A program made the position numbers and the translations under genes. A model generated the notes under the pieces. It saw only the letters and a list, made by a program, of their open reading frames with translations. It was not told where the DNA came from and ran no database searches. From sequence record OZ335960.1: DNA of 64,000 nucleotides. The stretch is one strand, 5' to 3'. Positions within the stretch are counted from its first letter, which is position 1; each line of letters opens with the position of its first letter. Origin of the DNA: a phage. Shown here one piece after another: positions 41,723 to 64,000 of this stretch.

Positions 41723-43540
41723 CTACTGGCTCATCCATTCTTTACGAAGGTCAGCATTATCTCCCATGAGCATTTCAAAAAGCTCTTTCCAGTTCTCAGG
41801 AAGTTTAACAACATCATATACCGGGTTTTGAATCATCTCACGATATTCAGATTTTTCCAAAGAGCCAAGTCCCTTAATATAACGGATGCTATGTTTAGGT
41901 AGAGCATCTTTGGCACTCTCATATTCAGCGACTGTATAAAACCATTCTTGTTTTTTACCGACCTGGGCGATGATTACAGGAGTTTTGACGAAACGAATTC
42001 TTCCTTGTTCAAACAGTTCTGGCCAATTACTAAAAAATCCGAGCAGAGAAGGATAAATGCTTCCTAGACCATCGTGGTCAGCATCGGTCATAATAGCAAT
42101 ATTATGATAATTCAAGTTTTCAGCTTTTTCACCAAGAACTAATCCAGTGATTGCGCAAATATCAAATAGTTCTTTGTTTTTAAGCATATCAGCATATGAC
42201 ATACCCCAGCTATTAAGAACTTTACCACGCAATGGATAACCACCATGAAGTTCTTTATCACGAACATCAATAAGATATCCGATAGCAGAATCACCCTCAG
42301 TCAAGAAAAGAGTAGTATCAGCATCTTTACCGCAAAGATTCGCTTTAATGTGTTTATGAACCTTAGCTTTAGAAGCCTTTTTAGCTGCTTTAGTTTCTGC
42401 TGCCTTTTCTGCCGCCAATTTACGAGCCAAGGCAGCTTCAATAATTGGCATTAAAATTGCTTCATTATTTAAAATAGCACGTGAAATCTTTTTAGCATCA
42501 AGCTGAATATGACTACGAATTTCACCAAATGGAGAAGTCAAACGCTCTTTAGTCTGAGAATCAAATCGCATGTTTTTCATATCACGAACAAACATAACGA
42601 TAGTCAAACATTCTTTAACCCGTGCTTTAGTTACATCAATTTTAAACTTGCGTTTGATTTGTGGAATAAGGTCTTCACAAATATCATCCATAACGCAGTC
42701 AATGTGATGGCCACCATTCTTAGTATGAATGTTATTGACGTATGTTAATTGACGAAAACCATCCGGTGAACGACCGACTGCAATAGAACAGTTTTCCTGT
42801 TCTTGAACGATAGCATGCTCATCATATTGGCGTGCATATTTCTTAAAATTACCCTGAACCTTTTTACCATTAAAGGTAAATTGAATATCAGGATAAACTA
42901 CTGCAAGTGTCTGGAGACGATCCAGTGTAATGTCAAGATAAACTTGAGATAGCTCATTAGTTTCAAATGACATAAAATCAGGAATGAAAGTAACACGAGT
43001 TCCTTTCCATTTTCCAGGAATAGTTTCCCATGATTTATTTTCCATGCCATTTGAACAACGAACTACAATATTATTTTGACCGTCGCCAGTTTCACCGACA
43101 AACATCACAGAAAAAATGTTAGTTAAACTAGAACCAACACCGTTCATACCGCCAGTGACGCGTTCTTTATCATCACCAAAGTTACCACCTGCTTTTGGAA
43201 TAGTCCATGCAGCAACAGGACCAGGAATTTCTTCACCAGTAGGTGTTTTAACCATCGCTTGCGGAATACCACGACCGTTATCTTCAACTGTTACTTGATT
43301 GTTTTTGATAGTAACATTAATTTTATTCGCGAATTTAAACTTAGTACGAATACCTTCATCTACTGAGTTATCGATAATTTCATCAATAAGCTTAACAAGA
43401 CCAGGTACATACTGAACACTTTCCCATTTACCAAACAGAAAGCGCTCATGCATTTCATTAGCAGAAGAACCAATGTACATGCCGCTACGCTTTTTGATAT
43501 GTTCAATATCGCTCAGAATTTTAATTTCATTCTTAATCAT
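41723..43540 (-). CDS. 39: DNA topoisomerase II large subunit gp39, unsplit (covers T4 genes 39 and 60)
   Basis: Track ORF starts at GTG; ATG 43540 with GAGGA RBS gives 605 aa; GHKL ATPase N-terminus, TOPRIM C-terminus; the C-terminal 120 aa match recalled T4 gp60 without the bypass segment. Confidence 0.9.
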   Translation of the reverse strand: MIKNEIKILSDIEHIKKRSGMYIGSSANEMHERFLFGKWESVQYVPGLVKLIDEIIDNSVDEGIRTKFKFANKINVTIKNNQVTVEDNGRGIPQAMVKTPTGEEIPGPVAAWTIPKAGGNFGDDKERVTGGMNGVGSSLTNIFSVMFVGETGDGQNNIVVRCSNGMENKSWETIPGKWKGTRVTFIPDFMSFETNELSQVYLDITLDRLQTLAVVYPDIQFTFNGKKVQGNFKKYARQYDEHAIVQEQENCSIAVGRSPDGFRQLTYVNNIHTKNGGHHIDCVMDDICEDLIPQIKRKFKIDVTKARVKECLTIVMFVRDMKNMRFDSQTKERLTSPFGEIRSHIQLDAKKISRAILNNEAILMPIIEAALARKLAAEKAAETKAAKKASKAKVHKHIKANLCGKDADTTLFLTEGDSAIGYLIDVRDKELHGGYPLRGKVLNSWGMSYADMLKNKELFDICAITGLVLGEKAENLNYHNIAIMTDADHDGLGSIYPSLLGFFSNWPELFEQGRIRFVKTPVIIAQVGKKQEWFYTVAEYESAKDALPKHSIRYIKGLGSLEKSEYREMIQNPVYDVVKLPENWKELFEMLMGDNADLRKEWMSQ

Positions 43541-43609
43541 CACTTATCCTCGTTTGGTTTCGGGAATATTATACTCCGGTAATCATAAAGCTAAAGGCCC
43601 GAAGGCCTT

Positions 43610-52515: not shown

Positions 52516-52986
52516 CTAGCGATAAAAACCAAAATAACGATTAGCTTCAATAATCTTTCTTTCTTCTTCAGACATTCTCCAGCGTAGTCCAACATCAAAA
52601 TGAGCCCAGACCATCTTAACAAATGCATTTATATCTTTAATATCTTCAATAATGAATGATTTACTTTTAGAAGGTTGACTAGCTAATTTAACTTTATCGT
52701 CTTCAAACAGGTCAAAAAGACCATATTCATGAGCTCTTTTATAGCCTTTAATAGTTAAAGCTTCAGAAGAAGAAAAAGGTGAATCAGTATTCTGCAAAAT
52801 ATCTTCAGTATGCTTTATAATTAGAATAACATTTTCTGGATATTTTCTTTCTTTTATATCTTTAATTAAAAGATCCGGATTTTCTGCTAAAGGAATAATT
52901 AATGAGCACTTTTTATCAAGTGTATTTACTGATTTACCTTCTTTGGACATAAATTCTATTGAATAATGTTTTGCTACTTCAATCAT
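52516..52986 (-). CDS. hypothetical protein
   Basis: ORF track 156 aa. Confidence 0.45.
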
Positions 52987-53139
52987 GTGATTTCCTCTTG
53001 CCTACTAATGGGCCGTCAGGAATTTTGTTTTCCTGGATATATTTCTCATTTTCTTCCATCATTTTACTGCCAATTTTAAGAAGCAAATCCATTGCTTCAT
53101 TTGCTTTAGCTTTAGCCTCTTCTAACGTCATATCTCTGT

Positions 53140-53343
53140 TCACGATTTATCCCCATAGATGTCTCTCATCAATTTAAGCGCTGAGCGTTCTAATTTCTTT
53201 TCTTTCTCAGCACTAATCATTGATTTCATCCATTCTTCTGATTCGTTCTGCATTTCTTTATTTGCTTGTTCAACCCAACCATCGTCAATATACATTGAGT
53301 TTGGTCTATTGAACCATTCAAGCATCTTCTTCAGAACTTTCAT
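53140..53343 (-). CDS. hypothetical protein
   Basis: ORF track 67 aa. Confidence 0.4.
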
Positions 53344-53815
53344 TTGTTTTACCTAAAACAATAGTAGGAGCATCGTCAAATTTATGAATTTTTAGTAAAT
53401 TTGGATGTAAACTATTCCACACAGAAGAAATAAAGTATGATAAAGCATCTTCACTTGCAATTATAAATTTATTTCCTTTATCTATTTTCCAACTATATAC
53501 TGAATCATACGAATAAAAAGATAAAGGTTTATCATTATATTGTTCTGCGCTAACATTAATGTATTCTGATTTAGTAAATGCTTCAATTGCTCTAAACGGA
53601 ATATTTGGCACAGTTTCAATAATACCAATCTTTTTAAGTTTTATTTCAGCATCTTCTGGAACTGGCATTGAAACGAAATTTTCTACGAGATACATTGGGT
53701 CACAATAACCCTTATCAATCATTACTGCTACGGTAATTGGAACGTCTTTAGCAAACGACAAACTATTACTGCTAATATACATTTCAAACAAAATCGCTTC
53801 CATAATTTTCCTCAA
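53318..53815 (-). CDS. hypothetical protein
   Basis: ORF track 165 aa. Confidence 0.45.
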
Positions 53816-54150
53816 TCACAAGATGTAGATGAACAACTAGAATCACAAGAACTTCCACATGAATCGCCCGTCCATACATGAATAGGAACATTAGTGTCAT
53901 ATGAATCAGAACTAGACTGTGCATTCTGTGTATTAGATGATGTAGGTGTTGACCAGCGCCAAGGATTTTTATAATATTCCTGGGCTTCTTCATAAGTCAT
54001 AGTAACTGCTTCTACTGTTCCATCTCCCATATAAACATATTCAACTACAGTTAAAGGAAGGTAGTCATTTGAAATAGGAACTACACCTTCTCCGGGAGTT
54101 GTAGAGAAAAAATCCGTAAAGAAACTTTTAAACCAATTAAAGATAAACAT
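53812..54150 (-). CDS. hypothetical cysteine/serine-rich protein
   Basis: ORF track 112 aa; C-terminal [15 protein letters not shown]. Confidence 0.45.
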
Positions 54151-54362
54151 TACAAAAAGCCTCTTTGAAATTCGACTCTTTGAAATCCACCCCAGTCAGT
54201 GTATCGCATTTCAGCATTGAACTCGACTGAACCATCTGCATGCATCATGAATGAATGCGTGACGATATCACAATCCCAGCTTTTCATACCCCATTTATCA
54301 GAGATAGCTTTATCAAGAACCTTCTGGAGGTCTTCATTTGGTTTAATCCAGCGATTTAACAT
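54150..54362 (-). CDS. hypothetical protein
   Basis: ORF track 70 aa; consensus early promoter (TTTACT-17-TATAAT) upstream. Confidence 0.5.
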   Translation of the reverse strand: MLNRWIKPNEDLQKVLDKAISDKWGMKSWDCDIVTHSFMMHADGSVEFNAEMRYTDWGGFQRVEFQRGFL

Positions 54363-54388
54363 AGTGCTCTCCTCTATAAGATAATTCT

Positions 54389-54417
54389 ATTATACCATAC
54401 TCATTTTGGAAAGTAAA
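54389..54417 (-). promoter_or_regulatory. T4-type early promoter
   Basis: Minus strand GTTTACT, 17 nt, TATAAT (perfect -10). Confidence 0.6.
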
Positions 54418-54427
54418 CCGGTAAAAT

Positions 54428-54451
54428 GAAAAAGGACTCCCGAAGGAGTCC
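54428..54451 (-). terminator. rho-independent terminator downstream of soc
   Basis: Minus strand GGACUCC-UUCG-GGAGUCC followed by a U-run; same hairpin sequence as at 2398-2415. Confidence 0.6.
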
Positions 54452-54457
54452 TTGAAA

Positions 54458-54703
54458 TTATTCACCAGTTACTTTCCACAAATCTTCGTTTGCAGCAATC
54501 CATGCATCACGTTGATTTTCTTCGTATACTGTAGTATATGCTGCTTTTTCTGAAGGGAATATCTGATAATGAGCGCCAGAAATTTTGTGAACGTCAGAAT
54601 AAAGAGGGAAAGCTACAGAAATTTCTTTTCCTTCAATTTTCTTATTTCCATCTAATTTCTGCTCAAATGTTTTAATATTAACATAACCGCGAGTACTAGC
54701 CAT
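54458..54703 (-). CDS. soc: small outer capsid protein Soc
   Basis: 81 aa; matches recalled T4 Soc; late promoter TATAAATA upstream. Confidence 0.9.
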   Translation of the reverse strand: MASTRGYVNIKTFEQKLDGNKKIEGKEISVAFPLYSDVHKISGAHYQIFPSEKAAYTTVYEENQRDAWIAANEDLWKVTGE

Positions 54704-54733
54704 GTAATTCTCCTTTTATTTAAATTACATGAC

Positions 54734-54741
54734 TATTTATA
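54734..54741 (-). promoter_or_regulatory. late promoter (TATAAATA) for soc
   Basis: Minus strand TATAAATA about 25 nt before the soc RBS AAGGAGA. Confidence 0.55.
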
Positions 54742-54775
54742 ATAAATTCTCACAGCTTTTAAGCTGTCGTTTATA

Positions 54776-55294
54776 TTAATAACCTCGGTCTTGACGAGCG
54801 AAGTTTTCGGCATTTTTTAGATAATAAAGTTTAAAGATTTCTTCAGCCGTAAGACCGAGACTCTGGAACATGTTCAGAACGAAATGAAGAATATCAATCA
54901 TTTCAAATTTAATTTCCAACTGGTCTTGTGGAGATAAGTCAGTAATCAGAGTTTCACGACGTTCACCGTGTTGAGCTTTCCACGGCTTCCATACAGCAGA
55001 TGCATCTTTTTCGCCATTGCTCATACCACCAAGAGAAGTCAGTAGTTCGCGGAATTCATCATCAATATAATCTTTCTGATTACGCAGCCAATCAACAACT
55101 TCACCTGCGGTAGCCAAATCATCAGGATGACGGTTATATTCAGGTTTATCTTTAGCTAAACGAACCTGCAGAGATTTCTGCATATCAAGCATAACTTGCA
55201 GCGGATCTTTTTCATCACCGAGAATATCCCAGTATTCGTTTTGAGCTTTATCAGCGCCTTCAATCAGTTGTGAACATTCATTAAAGTAAGCCAT
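54776..55294 (-). CDS. 56: dCTP pyrophosphatase gp56 (MazG-like)
   Basis: Track ORF (GTG at 55387) trimmed to ATG 55294 with AAAGGA RBS giving 172 aa. Confidence 0.85.
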   Translation of the reverse strand: MAYFNECSQLIEGADKAQNEYWDILGDEKDPLQVMLDMQKSLQVRLAKDKPEYNRHPDDLATAGEVVDWLRNQKDYIDDEFRELLTSLGGMSNGEKDASAVWKPWKAQHGERRETLITDLSPQDQLEIKFEMIDILHFVLNMFQSLGLTAEEIFKLYYLKNAENFARQDRGY

Positions 55295-55365
55295 TATTTT
55301 TCCTTTCAATTCATGGGTTAGTAGATTAATTATACAATAAATATATAAAGCAATAAGGAGGACAT

Positions 55366-55566
55366 ATGGTACAAAAATTAATGGCACTTGTTAATGCCAT
55401 AAAAGGTAATAAAAGACGTATAGCTTTTACTATTTCTGCTATGGTAGGAATTTTACTTTGGAATTTTATTTTATCACCAATTGCTATTGCTCATGGCGTT
55501 AATATTCCAGTAATTACTCTTGATACATTCGTAGATTTAGCATTTGCTTTAGTTGGGTTAATTTAA
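55366..55566 (+). CDS. small hydrophobic protein on the opposite strand, convergent with gene 61
   Basis: 66 aa; strong RBS AAGGAGG 4 nt before ATG 55366; two predicted hydrophobic helices; 3' end overlaps the gene 61 stop. Confidence 0.4.
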   Translation: MVQKLMALVNAIKGNKRRIAFTISAMVGILLWNFILSPIAIAHGVNIPVITLDTFVDLAFALVGLI

Positions 55567-59059: not shown

Positions 59060-59422
59060 TTAAAAGAATTTAAATTTTTTCTTTGACCTTTTATTAAATG
59101 CATCTTGTAGTTGCATTGTAATACATTTTTCTACATGAGGAGCTAACTCAGCTTTTCTTTCTTGGTCAAGAACAGCAAAGTCCATTACGACTTTTCCATC
59201 AACCCAATCTAATTTTGTCACATACACAATGTGTGTAGAACCGTCTTCTAGTTTAATGACAATCTCCTGGATAACATTTTCCATGGCAGATTTAATTATC
59301 TTAAGAGATTCATTAAAAAGACGTTCTTTTCTTTCTTCTTCCCCCTCCGAAGAGGGGGATTCATCGATAATTTCTAGATCTAAATCTAAATCATCTTTAT
59401 TCATTAAATTCTTCCATATCAC
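59060..59422 (-). CDS. 40: gp40 head vertex assembly protein (positional assignment)
   Basis: 120 aa between 41 and uvsX. Confidence 0.55.
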   Translation of the reverse strand: MIWKNLMNKDDLDLDLEIIDESPSSEGEEERKERLFNESLKIIKSAMENVIQEIVIKLEDGSTHIVYVTKLDWVDGKVVMDFAVLDQERKAELAPHVEKCITMQLQDAFNKRSKKKFKFF

Positions 59423-60578
59423 TTAACTGATCTAGGTCAGTTTCTAAATCAGCTGCTGATTTACTTTTACTTTCTGGAGATTTAAATTTTTCAACCTTTG
59501 AGTTAATCAATTCATCAACTTCAGCTTCAACAATTTCATTACTATCAATAGCACCTAACTGATAAGCACGTTTAATAGCATCTCGGAATGGTTGATGCTT
59601 AAATAAAGGACCCCAGAATGTAGTGCAATTGGTATCTTTTGCACGCCAAGATTTTTCTTCGCGAATCATCTCGCCGGTTTCTTCGTCAAGAAATTCACGA
59701 GCATACCAGCCATTTTTAGGTTTTACCACAAATCCTAATTCAAGAGCCATATCTAACAATCCAGAATAAGGATCGATACCACCGTCAAATTTAACATCAA
59801 TAAAGAATTTACTTTTTTCTTTAACGGTACGAGATTTTTCTACATTTAGAACAAATTGATACCCCTGAAGATCAGAACCATCTTTAATCTGGCGCTTACC
59901 GATAATGAATACAGTATCAGCCGAATACATTACGCCTGTACCACCTGTCATCACGGTTTTACTAAACATTTCAATTGTTTCAATTGTATGGTTAACCGCA
60001 ACACATGGAATGTTTTTAATACTAAAATAAGGAGTAACAATACGGAATAATGACTTCAGTGATTTAGCACGAGTCATATCTGCCACAGATTTTTCATTCA
60101 AGGCATCTTCCGTTTCTTTCTTAGAAGCCATATTACCAATTGAGTCGATGAATACAATAACTTTTTCACCACGCTCAATAGCTTCAAGCTGATTCACCAT
60201 ATCAATTTTCAGCTGTTCAACTGACTGGATTGGTGTATGAATTACTCGTTCCGGGTCAACTCCCATGGATCGCAAATAAGCAGGAGTAATACCAAATTCG
60301 CTATCATAGAATAGACATACCGCGTCAGGATATTTGTTCAAATACGCCGCAACCATAGTCAAAGACATATTTGATTTAAAGTGTTTAGAAGGACCTGCAA
60401 AAATAGTTAAACCAGACTGCATACCACCGTCAATCGCACCTGAAATAGCGATATTAAGCATTGGGATTTTTGTACGGATTACATCCTTTTCATTAAAGAA
60501 TTTAGATGTAGTCAGTTCAGCAGTCATTTTAGAAGTGGAAGCTTTAATCAAACGGGATTTTAAATCTGCAATAGACAT
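59397..60578 (-). CDS. uvsX: UvsX recombinase (RecA family)
   Basis: 393 aa; Walker A GPSKHFKS; matches recalled T4 UvsX. Confidence 0.95.
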   Translation of the reverse strand: MSIADLKSRLIKASTSKMTAELTTSKFFNEKDVIRTKIPMLNIAISGAIDGGMQSGLTIFAGPSKHFKSNMSLTMVAAYLNKYPDAVCLFYDSEFGITPAYLRSMGVDPERVIHTPIQSVEQLKIDMVNQLEAIERGEKVIVFIDSIGNMASKKETEDALNEKSVADMTRAKSLKSLFRIVTPYFSIKNIPCVAVNHTIETIEMFSKTVMTGGTGVMYSADTVFIIGKRQIKDGSDLQGYQFVLNVEKSRTVKEKSKFFIDVKFDGGIDPYSGLLDMALELGFVVKPKNGWYAREFLDEETGEMIREEKSWRAKDTNCTTFWGPLFKHQPFRDAIKRAYQLGAIDSNEIVEAEVDELINSKVEKFKSPESKSKSAADLETDLDQLSDMEEFNE

Positions 60579-60655
60579 TCATTTTTTCCATAGGCATCAT
60601 TATATTTTCCTCACTGGTTAAAGATAGAGTAATTATAACACAATAAATTTAGGCA

Positions 60656-61498
60656 TTAATCAACTGCTATTGGATGAATAGCATTAAACTTATGAAACGC
60701 TTCTGATTTTTCTTTGCGCGAAACACACATGCGAAGAACCTTTAATGGCTCGTCTTCTTCACCTAATGATTTTCGTTTTTCAATATTCGATGTTTTCCAA
60801 CGAGCTTGCTCTGGAAACTCTCTATTGATTTGCTCAAGCGCTCTATTATGTTTAGAATTACTACGAATTGAACTACATCCGCCTGGGGCTTGTGCTTTTC
60901 CAGATACAACCAGATATTTGAACAAGGCCAAATGCGGATAACCTTGATTAATTAAATTGAGAAATGCATACATATCTTCGCATAAATCAATTTTTCCATA
61001 CCCAATTTGTTCTGTTGTAAGTTTTCCAAGGTCATACCAGGTATTCGTGAATCCATATGAATTTTCACGATAATTACCCCAAGATGAAGTAATTTTAAAA
61101 ATAGGCAGACGAGCATGACCATGATAATACCCGCAATCCATGGCATCTTCAACGTATTGAATCAATTCATAGAACTGTTCACGAGTTAACTGATTAATTT
61201 TATCTACGCAGCGACGATCATCTTTCTTTCGCATTGAACTCATACGAATAGTAGTATCATCATCAATCATCCAAATTCGTTGACCTGCATACATATCAGT
61301 AATTGCTTTACGAGTACCAGCAATTCCGTTAACATCATCAGGAATAATTATAATTTTAGCTCTAGACCCGTAAGCGTCATAATAAGCTTTTTCTTCGTGT
61401 TCACGTACTACAATATGAGGTTCATAATCAGTCGGAAACATATCAAGGGCAGAAACTGCCCCTACGCGCTGATAGCTTGGAATTACGAATTGAATCAT
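60656..61498 (-). CDS. DxD-motif glycosyltransferase at the beta-gt locus (candidate beta-glucosyl-HMC-alpha-glucosyltransferase type)
   Basis: Track ORF (GTG at 61504) trimmed to ATG 61498, which overlaps the gene 42 stop (ATGA); 280 aa; IWMIDDDTT motif; unlike recalled T4 beta-gt. Confidence 0.5.
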   Translation of the reverse strand: MIQFVIPSYQRVGAVSALDMFPTDYEPHIVVREHEEKAYYDAYGSRAKIIIIPDDVNGIAGTRKAITDMYAGQRIWMIDDDTTIRMSSMRKKDDRRCVDKINQLTREQFYELIQYVEDAMDCGYYHGHARLPIFKITSSWGNYRENSYGFTNTWYDLGKLTTEQIGYGKIDLCEDMYAFLNLINQGYPHLALFKYLVVSGKAQAPGGCSSIRSNSKHNRALEQINREFPEQARWKTSNIEKRKSLGEEDEPLKVLRMCVSRKEKSEAFHKFNAIHPIAVD

Positions 61499-62235
61499 TT
61501 CCACTCACCGTTATAATCTTTTTTCGCAATATGAGTTTCGCCAGTTTTCCACCAATGGTCAACCAAATAAAAATGACGGGAATACACATGAAGGCTTCCG
61601 ACATTCCATATAATGGAACCTGCTTTATACTGACGAGTTGAATCACCTGCATTCAAATCAGATACTAATTTATCTAGTACGTATTTTTGCCACGCATAAT
61701 CATTACGGAATCCGAAGACCACGTCATTTGAACGCATGCTTACTACTGCATTGACTTTCTTATCACGAATCAGGTACTGTACTGTATTCGTACACATGAA
61801 ATCTGACATACCATCTTTACGATAGTCAAACTGCATGGATGGGCGAGTATAAATCATGATACCACGCCGAGAATCAGGATTTTGACCAAGTTCAAATAAA
61901 CACATATCATACTGGGCATAGTTATCTTCTGACCAGATGGCCCAACCATAATTCGAGTTAATTTCGCCTTTAGAAGATGCTACCTGCTGCCAAATCTTTG
62001 GTGTTTCGCCTGGAATATCTTTAACAAACAAACTTTTAGATTTATACCATTCAAGTTCACGCTGAATGTATTCATCATTAAGAGCGCCAAAAATAAACGG
62101 TTCATCTGCTACAAATGATGCACCAATAATTTCAATAGTTTTAACACCAGTTTTATCAACTACGAAATCTTTTTCCTTTAATGCAAGCCCCAAATGAAGA
62201 CGGATTTCTTCAACTGTCATAGAGTCACTAATCAT
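61495..62235 (-). CDS. 42: dCMP hydroxymethylase gp42
   Basis: 246 aa; ThyA-like fold. Confidence 0.9.
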   Translation of the reverse strand: MISDSMTVEEIRLHLGLALKEKDFVVDKTGVKTIEIIGASFVADEPFIFGALNDEYIQRELEWYKSKSLFVKDIPGETPKIWQQVASSKGEINSNYGWAIWSEDNYAQYDMCLFELGQNPDSRRGIMIYTRPSMQFDYRKDGMSDFMCTNTVQYLIRDKKVNAVVSMRSNDVVFGFRNDYAWQKYVLDKLVSDLNAGDSTRQYKAGSIIWNVGSLHVYSRHFYLVDHWWKTGETHIAKKDYNGEWK

Positions 62236-62388
62236 TTAAACCTCAATTGATACATTCATATTTAACTTGTAACAGTAATAAACCCCAACCTATAATAAGG
62301 GTCGGAATCATAAGAGGAACCGTTACGCTATAGTATATACTTATTATAATCATCAAGATTAAAAGCAATACTGCTAAAATTTTGCTTT

Positions 62389-62640
62389 TCATTCCTTCTC
62401 TCTGATGATAATTACTTGATTTTGCTGTGCGGATTTTTTAGTTTCACCCGCAATTGACCAAATAAAGGTAATAAACCAACCAATAATTGACCAATTAAAC
62501 AGTAAAGATGTGAAAAAGATTCCTACTGTCGATTTTGACCCACGCATCAAGGCGATGAACCATGGAAGCATGTATATAATAATAGCCAACACGCCTGAAA
62601 CTAAAACCATAAAAATTGAACCTGCTACTAAAGTTTCCAC
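62389..62640 (-). CDS. imm: Imm immunity (superinfection exclusion) membrane protein
   Basis: 83 aa, two TM helices. Confidence 0.85.
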   Translation of the reverse strand: METLVAGSIFMVLVSGVLAIIIYMLPWFIALMRGSKSTVGIFFTSLLFNWSIIGWFITFIWSIAGETKKSAQQNQVIIIREKE

Positions 62641-62647
62641 GTTTTCC

Positions 62648-63028
62648 TCACTTAATCAAATTTTTTACACATGAATTATAAGAATTCACTACATACTCCA
62701 TTGGAGCATTTTTACCAGTACGCCATTGATAATTATTAGCCCAATTAGCCCAAAGTTCGGCACAGTAGTTTTCAATTTTTTCTTCGCGTGTAATTACATC
62801 TGAATTACGATATGCTTGAGCAGATTCATCTGGACGAATAGCTTCGTCAAAATTCGCCTGCATTTGTTCTACTGTCTGTTTTGGAGCCTCTTTATAACAC
62901 TTAACGTTAGGATTATAAAATTTGCTTGAACAATTTACAATTTTTCCTGCGTCAGACTGATTTACTACTGATCCTTGAGCTACACAGCCAGTAAGACCCA
63001 ATGCAATAACCAAAATAGCGATTTTCAT
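62648..63028 (-). CDS. putative lipoprotein
   Basis: Track ORF reads through an early promoter; real start ATG 63028 gives 126 aa with signal peptide and lipobox (LTGC). Confidence 0.5.
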   Translation of the reverse strand: MKIAILVIALGLTGCVAQGSVVNQSDAGKIVNCSSKFYNPNVKCYKEAPKQTVEQMQANFDEAIRPDESAQAYRNSDVITREEKIENYCAELWANWANNYQWRTGKNAPMEYVVNSYNSCVKNLIK

Positions 63029-63062
63029 TTCATTCTCCAAATCCGTATCAGTTGATAGTTGT

Positions 63063-63091
63063 ATAGTACCACAGAGGAACAGTCTTGTAAA
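63063..63091 (-). promoter_or_regulatory. T4-type early promoter (conserved cassette copy)
   Basis: Same conserved cassette, TTTACA-17-TACTAT, upstream of the lipoprotein ORF. Confidence 0.6.
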
Positions 63092-63175
63092 CAGTTTTGT
63101 GAAAAAATTTTTAATGAATTTACAGGACCTAGAATCATCTATTTTTCTTAAGTATAGATTTATATTACTTGTATG

Positions 63176-63196
63176 AAAAAGGGACCCGGAGGTCCC
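63176..63196 (-). terminator. rho-independent terminator downstream of gene 43
   Basis: Minus strand GGGACC-UCCG-GGUCCC followed by UUUUU. Confidence 0.5.
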
Positions 63197-63209
63197 TAGA
63201 TTTATTCTA

Positions 63210-64000
63210 TCAGCCAAACAGGAAGTCTAACGAAGCTTTTTCCTCATAGTCCATACCTGCCGATTCACACATACCCGCAAGCGGTTTAACAAACGATTTT
63301 TGGAACAAAGTTGAGTAGTCAATCCAAGACAGTACGTCAGAACGAATTTCCTTTGGAAGTTCTGTGCCTGACGGCCAAGCAATGCACTTATCACCAAATG
63401 GATTTCCTTCACGTAATGGAAGAACCATTACCTTATTTCCATCCAAAATTGGAGCTACACCTAAACCGCTAACAGCTCGACGATAAGTTAGCACACCACG
63501 AATATGGAACGGACATTTAAATCCTGGCCAACCTTTATCATCATATTTCGCTATATCGTTCGCAGTTTTTACTTCAGCAATAACTTTATAGTCAAGTTGA
63601 CGATATTCTTTCTCAAAGTTCTTGTAGTATTCTTGGACAGACTCTTCGCCTTCCTGAAGAATACGACGAATACTTTCTTCGAGAGCTTCTTGCACTGCTT
63701 TTGGTGTTGAACTTTGCTGAGTTTCCATACCCATGATTTTTAGATGCGGTTCAGCAAATCGCTTATCTTCCATATCATAAACGTTCAGAGCATAACGTTT
63801 TTTCGCTTTCCAAAATCCACCAACACCCTTTGAACCAAGCGGAGGGCAAGAAATAGCTTCACGGTCCATATGCATCAGATGCTCGCGGTTATTCATATAG
63901 TCACATAACTCACGATATGCAACATCAATCATCGGTTCCATCTTTTTCTTACCGAACTGATTCATGAATTCAACTAAATCATTTTGTTCTTTAAAGCGGT
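63210..64000 (-). CDS. 43: DNA polymerase gp43, C-terminal part (gene continues beyond the window end)
   Basis: Frame open to the window edge; ends with the clamp-interaction tail SLDFLFG; terminator hairpin downstream. Confidence 0.85.
   Translation of the reverse strand, partial: RFKEQNDLVEFMNQFGKKKMEPMIDVAYRELCDYMNNREHLMHMDREAISCPPLGSKGVGGFWKAKKRYALNVYDMEDKRFAEPHLKIMGMETQQSSTPKAVQEALEESIRRILQEGEESVQEYYKNFEKEYRQLDYKVIAEVKTANDIAKYDDKGWPGFKCPFHIRGVLTYRRAVSGLGVAPILDGNKVMVLPLREGNPFGDKCIAWPSGTELPKEIRSDVLSWIDYSTLFQKSFVKPLAGMCESAGMDYEEKASLDFLFG

Follow-up and report, generated by a model that had tools for sequence, protein, structure and literature searches.

In phage T4, the 1941-nt interval between uvsX and gene 42 (T4 annotation) holds segA and the gene of the 351-aa beta-glucosyltransferase (b-gt). 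Which enzyme takes this place in the phage of record OZ335960.1, and what sugars would its DNA carry? We examined a 64,000-nt stretch of this DNA, here called the window, in which a first-pass annotation had described a 280-aa protein with the motif IWMIDDDTT between uvsX and gene 42. Reading of the intact ORF confirmed this description in every particular. The ORF runs on the minus strand from an ATG at 61498 to a TAA at 60656-60658 (843 nt, 280 aa). A program-made ORF list places the start at a GTG at 61504, which gives 282 aa; the ATG was taken as the start because all homologues begin with MIQFVIPSYQR. The frame contains no stop or frameshift, and the DDD motif, R11 and all other alignment-invariant columns are kept. 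IWMIDDDTT corresponds to residues 75-83 (window 61250-61276), and D79, D80 and D81 within it are invariant in 8 homologues of 47-100% identity. Positions of the features are collected in Table 1, where the gene is named ba-GT for the T2/T6 beta-glucosyl-HMC-alpha-glucosyltransferase.

Table 1. Features of the uvsX/gene 42 locus and their positions in the window
Feature	Position	Strand	Basis
ba-GT / TAGT CDS, 280 aa + stop, T2/T6-type beta-glucosyl-HMC-alpha-glucosyltransferase (most likely)	60656..61498	-	
DDD, aa 79-81, predicted DxD-type metal/UDP-sugar binding motif	61256..61264	-	read from sequence
MIQFVIPSYQR, aa 1-11, N-terminal strand + loop	61466..61498	-	family-invariant; strand E3-7 in model
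gene 42, dCMP hydroxymethylase, 246 aa	61495..62235	-	ORF; thymidylate-synthase family matches
uvsX recombinase, 393 aa, downstream flank of cassette	59397..60578	-	ORF; RecA-family match
Spacer, 77 nt, ba-GT stop to uvsX start	60579..60655	-	read from sequence
Cassette of 946 nt replacing segA + b-gt of T4	60567..61512	.	blastn homology to T4 ends at 60566 and restarts at 61513

The cassette between uvsX and gene 42

Comparison with T4 by blastn delimited the exchanged segment. The DNA on the uvsX side is 89.5% identical to T4 up to position 60566, just inside the uvsX start, and gene 42 is 95% identical to its T4 counterpart from 61513 on, just inside its end. Since T4 homology breaks at these two points, the 946-nt cassette here replaces the 1941-nt cassette of T4. 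At its upstream edge, the TGA of gene 42 and the ATG of ba-GT overlap as ATGA (sequence GGTGAGTGGAAATGATTCAA). Searches of the whole window by tblastn gave no significant match to T4 b-gt, T4 segA, T6 alpha-GT or T2 Dam.

The spacer upstream of uvsX reads TAATGCCTAAATTTATTGTGTTATAAT, with a MotA-box-like TGCCTAA, 11 nt, and a TATAAT with an upstream TG; judged from these elements, it may contain a middle promoter for uvsX. No blastn alignment was obtained between this 77-nt spacer and T4, where segA fills the upstream side. Generic scans of positions 60300-62700 returned 11 promoter-like sites against 10.3 expected from shuffled sequence, and one terminator-like site against 1.1 expected. A hairpin at 61444-61464 falls within the ba-GT coding sequence, and Rfam and tRNA scans gave no match in the whole window.

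Neighbouring genes yielded observations in their own right. Between gene 42 and imm lies an ORF for a very hydrophobic protein of 49 aa (MKSKILAVLLLILMIIISIYYSVTVPLMIPTLIIGWGLLLLQVKYECIN; window 62243-62392, minus strand), with a start that shares nucleotides with the imm stop. T4, T2, T6 and the phage ECp13 all have this ORF intact, at 90-94% identity, but it is left unannotated in the records of all four; that of the phage EH2 calls it 'Phage protein'. Its product is probably a small membrane protein that the T4 reference annotation lacks. The program-listed 189-aa ORF with a TTG start (window 62648-63217, minus strand) overstates its gene: the match to T4 Imm.1 covers only 62657-63028 (124 aa, 97.6% identity), and translation probably does not include the first 65 aa of the listed ORF. 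Gene 56 (dCTPase; window 54779-55294, minus strand) encodes a protein only 71% identical to T2 gp56, whereas the DNA around it matches T2 and T6 at about 96% identity; it is a mosaic patch in another gene of the cytosine-modification pathway. The ORF of the topoisomerase large subunit (window 41723-43543, minus strand, 606 aa) adjoins rIIA. In T4, this subunit is divided between gene 39 (about 516 aa) and gene 60; the phage would instead have an uninterrupted topoisomerase gene of the T2/T6 type, without the gene 60 split and bypass, a reading drawn entirely from the ORF length and the annotation of the matching records.

Family, relatives and predicted fold of the protein

The family to which the 280-aa protein belongs was determined by profile searches. 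It matched Pfam PF20691 (TAGT, TET-associated glycosyltransferase) at 39.7 bits (E=6.4e-10), where the curated gathering threshold is 27.5 bits, with residues 3-207 aligned on profile positions 2-205 of 205. As this score is modest, the protein represents a divergent subfamily of PF20691. The PHROG family phrog_842, 'beta-glucosyl-HMC-alpha-glucosyltransferase', matched residues 1-275 at 2e-88, and no NCBIfam family was matched. A second Pfam match, PF01877 'RNA_binding', was dropped, its E value of 0.15 being below the cut-off.

A tblastn search of 50,697 phage records found homologues in 690, from which we conclude that ba-GT is a real gene and not a chance ORF. Identity was at least 95% in 472 of these records, mostly Tequatroviruses of Escherichia, Shigella and Yersinia, and 60-80% in about 200 records from T4-like phages of Klebsiella, Enterobacter, Salmonella and Citrobacter. 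Among the matches listed, all those that are annotated and at least 60% identical have as their neighbour a homologue of gene 42 or, in a small number of Klebsiella phages, a homing endonuclease.

The closest genome found was that of ECp13, whose ba-GT differs at one residue and whose DNA is 97.7-97.9% identical over 25 kb. The syntenic proteins of T2 (AP018813) and T6 (AP018814, MH550421) are 98% identical over the full 280 aa and are annotated as beta-glucosyl-HMC-alpha-glucosyltransferase. The T2 gene lies at the same locus, overlaps the stop of gene 42 in the same way, has 280 codons and keeps the DDD and the invariant residues; its product differs from the window protein by five substitutions (R11H, I51T, K92R, I101V and P251S). 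The T6 gene, too, is flanked by uvsX and gene 42 and shows this stop overlap, and its product differs by six (Y40N, I51T, D55G, K92R, I101V and R106H). All of these fall at variable alignment positions except R11H of T2. EH2, a Tequatrovirus from the Durham collection (CAL1327621.1, 'Glucosyl transferase'), has three conservative differences (I51T, K92R and I101V), none of functional note, and its locus is organised identically, with the 49-aa ORF again lying between gene 42 and imm; as its DNA composition has been measured, it is the best proxy for the expected sugar pattern. The full-length identity of 98% with the syntenic T2 and T6 proteins thus supports the proposal of a T2/T6-type enzyme for the addition of a second glucose. 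The T6 and T2 genes (ggt, g-gt or ba-gt), which Winkler and Rueger reportedly cloned in 1993, encode the glucosyl-DNA beta-glucosyltransferase of EC 2.4.1.28.

An AlphaFold2 model was built on an alignment of 8 sequences, the homologue search having given 10 clusters only. Its mean pLDDT was 75 and its pTM 0.77; the N-terminal 130 residues reached pLDDT 75-95, and loops at residues 132-140 and 191-211 were of low confidence. The model has a beta-alpha-beta core in which the DDD comes directly after the fourth strand, E74-78 (pLDDT about 92), and the invariant PSYQR loop follows the strand of residues 3-7. As modelled, this layout is that of a GT-A (nucleotide-diphospho-sugar transferase) fold with the DDD at the canonical position. 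The MIQFVIPSYQR segment resembles the nucleotide-binding beta1-loop of GT2-type enzymes and, by analogy with GT-A/GT2 enzymes in general, would have a role in nucleotide binding. A PDB sequence search returned chance matches only (E at least 0.77) and no solved relative. The GT-A fold of TAGT has been described in a 2026 NAR paper (PMC13216743), and the Pfam TAGT family, sister to GT2, has this fold and the DxD motif in common with the window protein. TAGT is named for the TET/JBP dioxygenase, whereas here hmC is made as a nucleotide by the neighbouring dCMP hydroxymethylase of the thymidylate-synthase family.

Resemblance to T4 b-gt was then looked for in three ways. The best BLASTP value of the 280-aa protein against T4 b-gt was E=3.4, a tblastn search of the complete window with T4 b-gt gave E values of at least 0.33, and a Pfam scan of the protein gave no PF09198 match at E<=1. 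The earlier statement that the protein does not resemble the T4 enzyme is therefore upheld, full-length similarity being absent. T4 b-gt (PF09198; PDB 1BGT, 1JG7) has a GT-B fold, whereas the window protein is predicted to be GT-A and to lack the two Rossmann domains of GT-B, and differs further in its DxD motif. T4 b-gt occupies the same genomic slot but with segA beside it, and segA is absent from the window. The acceptor of T4 b-gt is the hydroxymethyl group of hmC, and that of ba-GT is the 6-OH of the alpha-linked glucose. What the two have in common is the general job, UDP-glucose-dependent, post-replicative beta-glucosyl transfer onto modified cytosine, and its broad purpose, evasion of host nucleases. 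The window gene belongs to the T2/T6 ba-GT orthologue group and to Pfam TAGT, outside the T4 b-gt family.

Reaction and extent of diglucosylation

With the gene intact, its family, fold and synteny observed, near-identity to the T2, T6 and EH2 proteins and no T4 b-gt in the window, we are confident that the ORF encodes a T2/T6-type ba-GT (g-gt, TAGT), most likely yielding gentiobiosyl-hmC. The reaction, linkage and phenotypes are those given in the literature. The T2/T6 enzyme adds a second, beta-1,6-linked glucose to alpha-glucosyl-hmC, which gives gentiobiosyl-hmC (PMC11078745; PMC13390438; PMC13216743), and deletion of the T6 gene leaves DNA with alpha-glucosyl-hmC only (PMC11078745; bioRxiv 10.64898/2026.02.25.707755). 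We assigned the same reaction to the window enzyme because it shares 98-99% identity and identical synteny with the T2, T6 and EH2 proteins. In the pathway proposed, gp42, the product of the adjacent and translationally overlapping gene, would make hm-dCMP, and the polymerase would incorporate hmC; alpha-GT, encoded beyond the window, would add the first glucose to give alpha-glucosyl-hmC, and after replication ba-GT would add the second from UDP-glucose. That UDP-glucose is the donor and that the DDD binds metal would be expected from the classical biochemistry and from what GT-A enzymes generally do. The alpha-gt gene was not found within the window by tblastn with T6 alpha-GT; the window ends inside gene 43, and in ECp13, T2 and T6 alpha-gt lies about 11 kb further on, and in this phage it would be expected between genes 47 and 55.

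Measured compositions are available for Durham Tequatroviruses with alpha-GT and TAGT, in which the latter was placed 'at the position syntenic with' T4 beta-GT (PMC13390438). Their DNA contains, by HPLC/MS, 5-hmdC, alpha-glucosyl-mdC and alpha-gentiobiosyl-mdC with no beta-glucosyl-mdC, and in EH2 and six other Durham phages about one third is 5-hmdC and about two thirds gentiobiosyl (PMC13390438). Since the slot holds ba-GT instead of segA and b-gt, we expect hmC, alpha-glucosyl-hmC and gentiobiosyl-hmC in the window phage, and no beta-glucosyl-hmC.

The gentiobiosyl ratio cannot be read from the gene being there: T2 encodes a protein 98% identical at this locus, and yet its DNA contains only about 5% gentiobiosyl-hmC beside about 70% alpha-glucosyl-hmC, the values in T6 being about 72% and about 3% (PMC11078745; bioRxiv 10.64898/2026.02.25.707755). 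The window enzyme might thus be of the T2/T6 type but poor in vivo, as in T2, leaving DNA mostly mono-alpha-glucosylated with a few percent of gentiobiosyl-hmC, and the Durham phages EL, BGP and Geo, which carry TAGT, do show an intermediate 1:2:2 ratio (PMC13390438). We consider this very unlikely. The window protein carries R11 (codon 61466-61468, matching codon 11 of T2 AP018813 at L003:18031-18033), and R11, in the loop after strand 1, is invariant across 8 homologues down to 47% identity, H11 occurring in T2 alone. The exact 80-nt T2 stretch spanning the start and codon 11 was 100% identical only in 7 T2 records and SV76 among 462 matching records, and the only difference between EH2 and T2 in this stretch is codon 11, which is CGT in EH2 and CAT in T2. 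A pattern scan of IMG/VR gave no H11 match against 5 for R11, a sample too small to weigh alone. The window protein also differs from that of EH2, whose DNA is about two thirds gentiobiosyl, only by the three substitutions given above. In addition, the window lacks dam although the region from gene 56 to gene 61 (52986-55563), where T2 and T4 keep this gene, is included; this arrangement is T6-like, and the dam-less Durham Tequatroviruses (T6-like group iv) are the gentiobiosyl-rich group (PMC13390438). A causal role of dam or of R11H is hypothetical.

The distribution of codon 11 suggests that the low diglucosylation of T2 may come from a private hypomorphic allele, R11H. Going one step further, and only tentatively, the extent of diglucosylation could be set largely by the ba-GT allele and so be predictable from its sequence, with T2 held at about 5% by R11H in the putative nucleotide-binding loop and the R11 enzyme of the window fully active, giving about two-thirds gentiobiosyl; we regard this as a possibility that is rather less than even. 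We found no paper stating a link from R11H to the ratio, though the literature was not searched for it specifically. Because the window has R11 and lacks dam, a T6/EH2-like pattern is expected with modest confidence, and the sugar ratio of this phage is probably T6-like and gentiobiosyl-rich.

Two T6 records carry lesions in ba-GT that are absent from the window gene. In AP018814 (L002:4135-4974), a 3-bp deletion has removed one Asp codon of the DDD, and in MH550421 (L006:3138-3980), codon 10 has changed from CAG to TAG and the annotated CDS begins at Met20. Mutations of laboratory stocks or errors in sequencing may account for these lesions, which in either case matter for the choice of the 'T6' that serves as the gentiobiosyl standard. 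DD versus DDD as the cause of low or high diglucosylation was rejected, as the other T6 record and EH2, with about two thirds gentiobiosyl, have DDD.

Less probable still, and in our judgement very improbable, is that this TAGT-family enzyme has another specificity, transferring a different sugar such as arabinose or taking beta-glucosyl-hmC or bare hmC as acceptor. The TAGT family is diverse, with homologues that occur beside beta-GT or with no other GT and whose functions were called undefined (PMC13216743), but these divergent homologues are much more distant, at 47-66% identity or less. Other Straboviridae arabinosylate their cytosines (PMC13390438); the window protein, however, is 97-99% identical to the proteins of T6 and EH2, whose DNA bears alpha-linked gentiobiose, which makes a change of specificity improbable, and the Durham Tequatroviruses that carry the gene have no beta-glucosyl-mdC (PMC13390438). 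A diverged T4-type enzyme placing a single beta-glucose on hmC, which has in its favour only the shared genomic slot and the loose naming of the gene as 'beta-glucosyltransferase' or b-gt in some records, is refuted by the sequence and fold comparison (best E=3.4; 280 versus 351 aa; GT-A versus the GT-B of PDB 1BGT/1JG7; PMC13216743) and by T2, T6 and EH2 DNA without beta-glucosyl-hmC (PMC13390438; PMC11078745), and its probability is negligible.

Commonness and meaning of the alpha-GT plus TAGT arrangement

About 470 sequenced T4-like phages have a copy of ba-GT at least 95% identical at the uvsX/gene 42 locus. The assignment of this gene reportedly dates from 1993. Later papers describe the effects of deleting the gene (2024, 2026), report its syntenic replacement together with LC-MS data (2026), and cover both its GT-A fold and its distribution (2026). 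According to the 2026 NAR survey, nearly all phages carrying these glucosyltransferases have alpha-GT or beta-GT, alone or with TAGT; alpha-GT with TAGT is the common combination, and the alpha-plus-beta pair of T4 is rare (6 of 753 genomes; PMC13216743). A gene that is 'non-T4' is therefore not unusual, because the TAGT state is that of the Tequatrovirus majority and T4 is the exception (PMC13216743). The ba-GT gene at this locus is the usual arrangement in T4-like coliphages and an already known feature, and it raises no new question, since gene, fold, distribution and phenotype have been described.

The further claim that a sugar pattern other than that of T4 would alter sensitivity to sugar-specific defences agrees with published reports (PMC11078745; bioRxiv 10.64898/2026.02.25.707755; PMC13390438). 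T6 DNA bearing alpha-glucosyl groups only is degraded in vitro by the Brig1 glycosylase, and in vivo the sensitivity of the phage is increased (PMC11078745); deletion of the T6 gene also makes the DNA a substrate of BapA (bioRxiv 10.64898/2026.02.25.707755). Gentiobiosyl-hmC resists Brig1 in vitro and BapA, and GmrSD/BrxU-type enzymes still cut it (PMC11078745; bioRxiv 10.64898/2026.02.25.707755; PMC13390438; PMC13216743). The value of the finding thus lies in annotation: the type to be entered for this phage is alpha-GT plus TAGT (T2/T6-type), with gentiobiosyl-hmC and without beta-glucosyl-hmC, and not T4-type. According to the published work, this type predicts behaviour toward sugar-specific defences, and knowing it is useful for choosing therapeutic phages and for interpreting host range.
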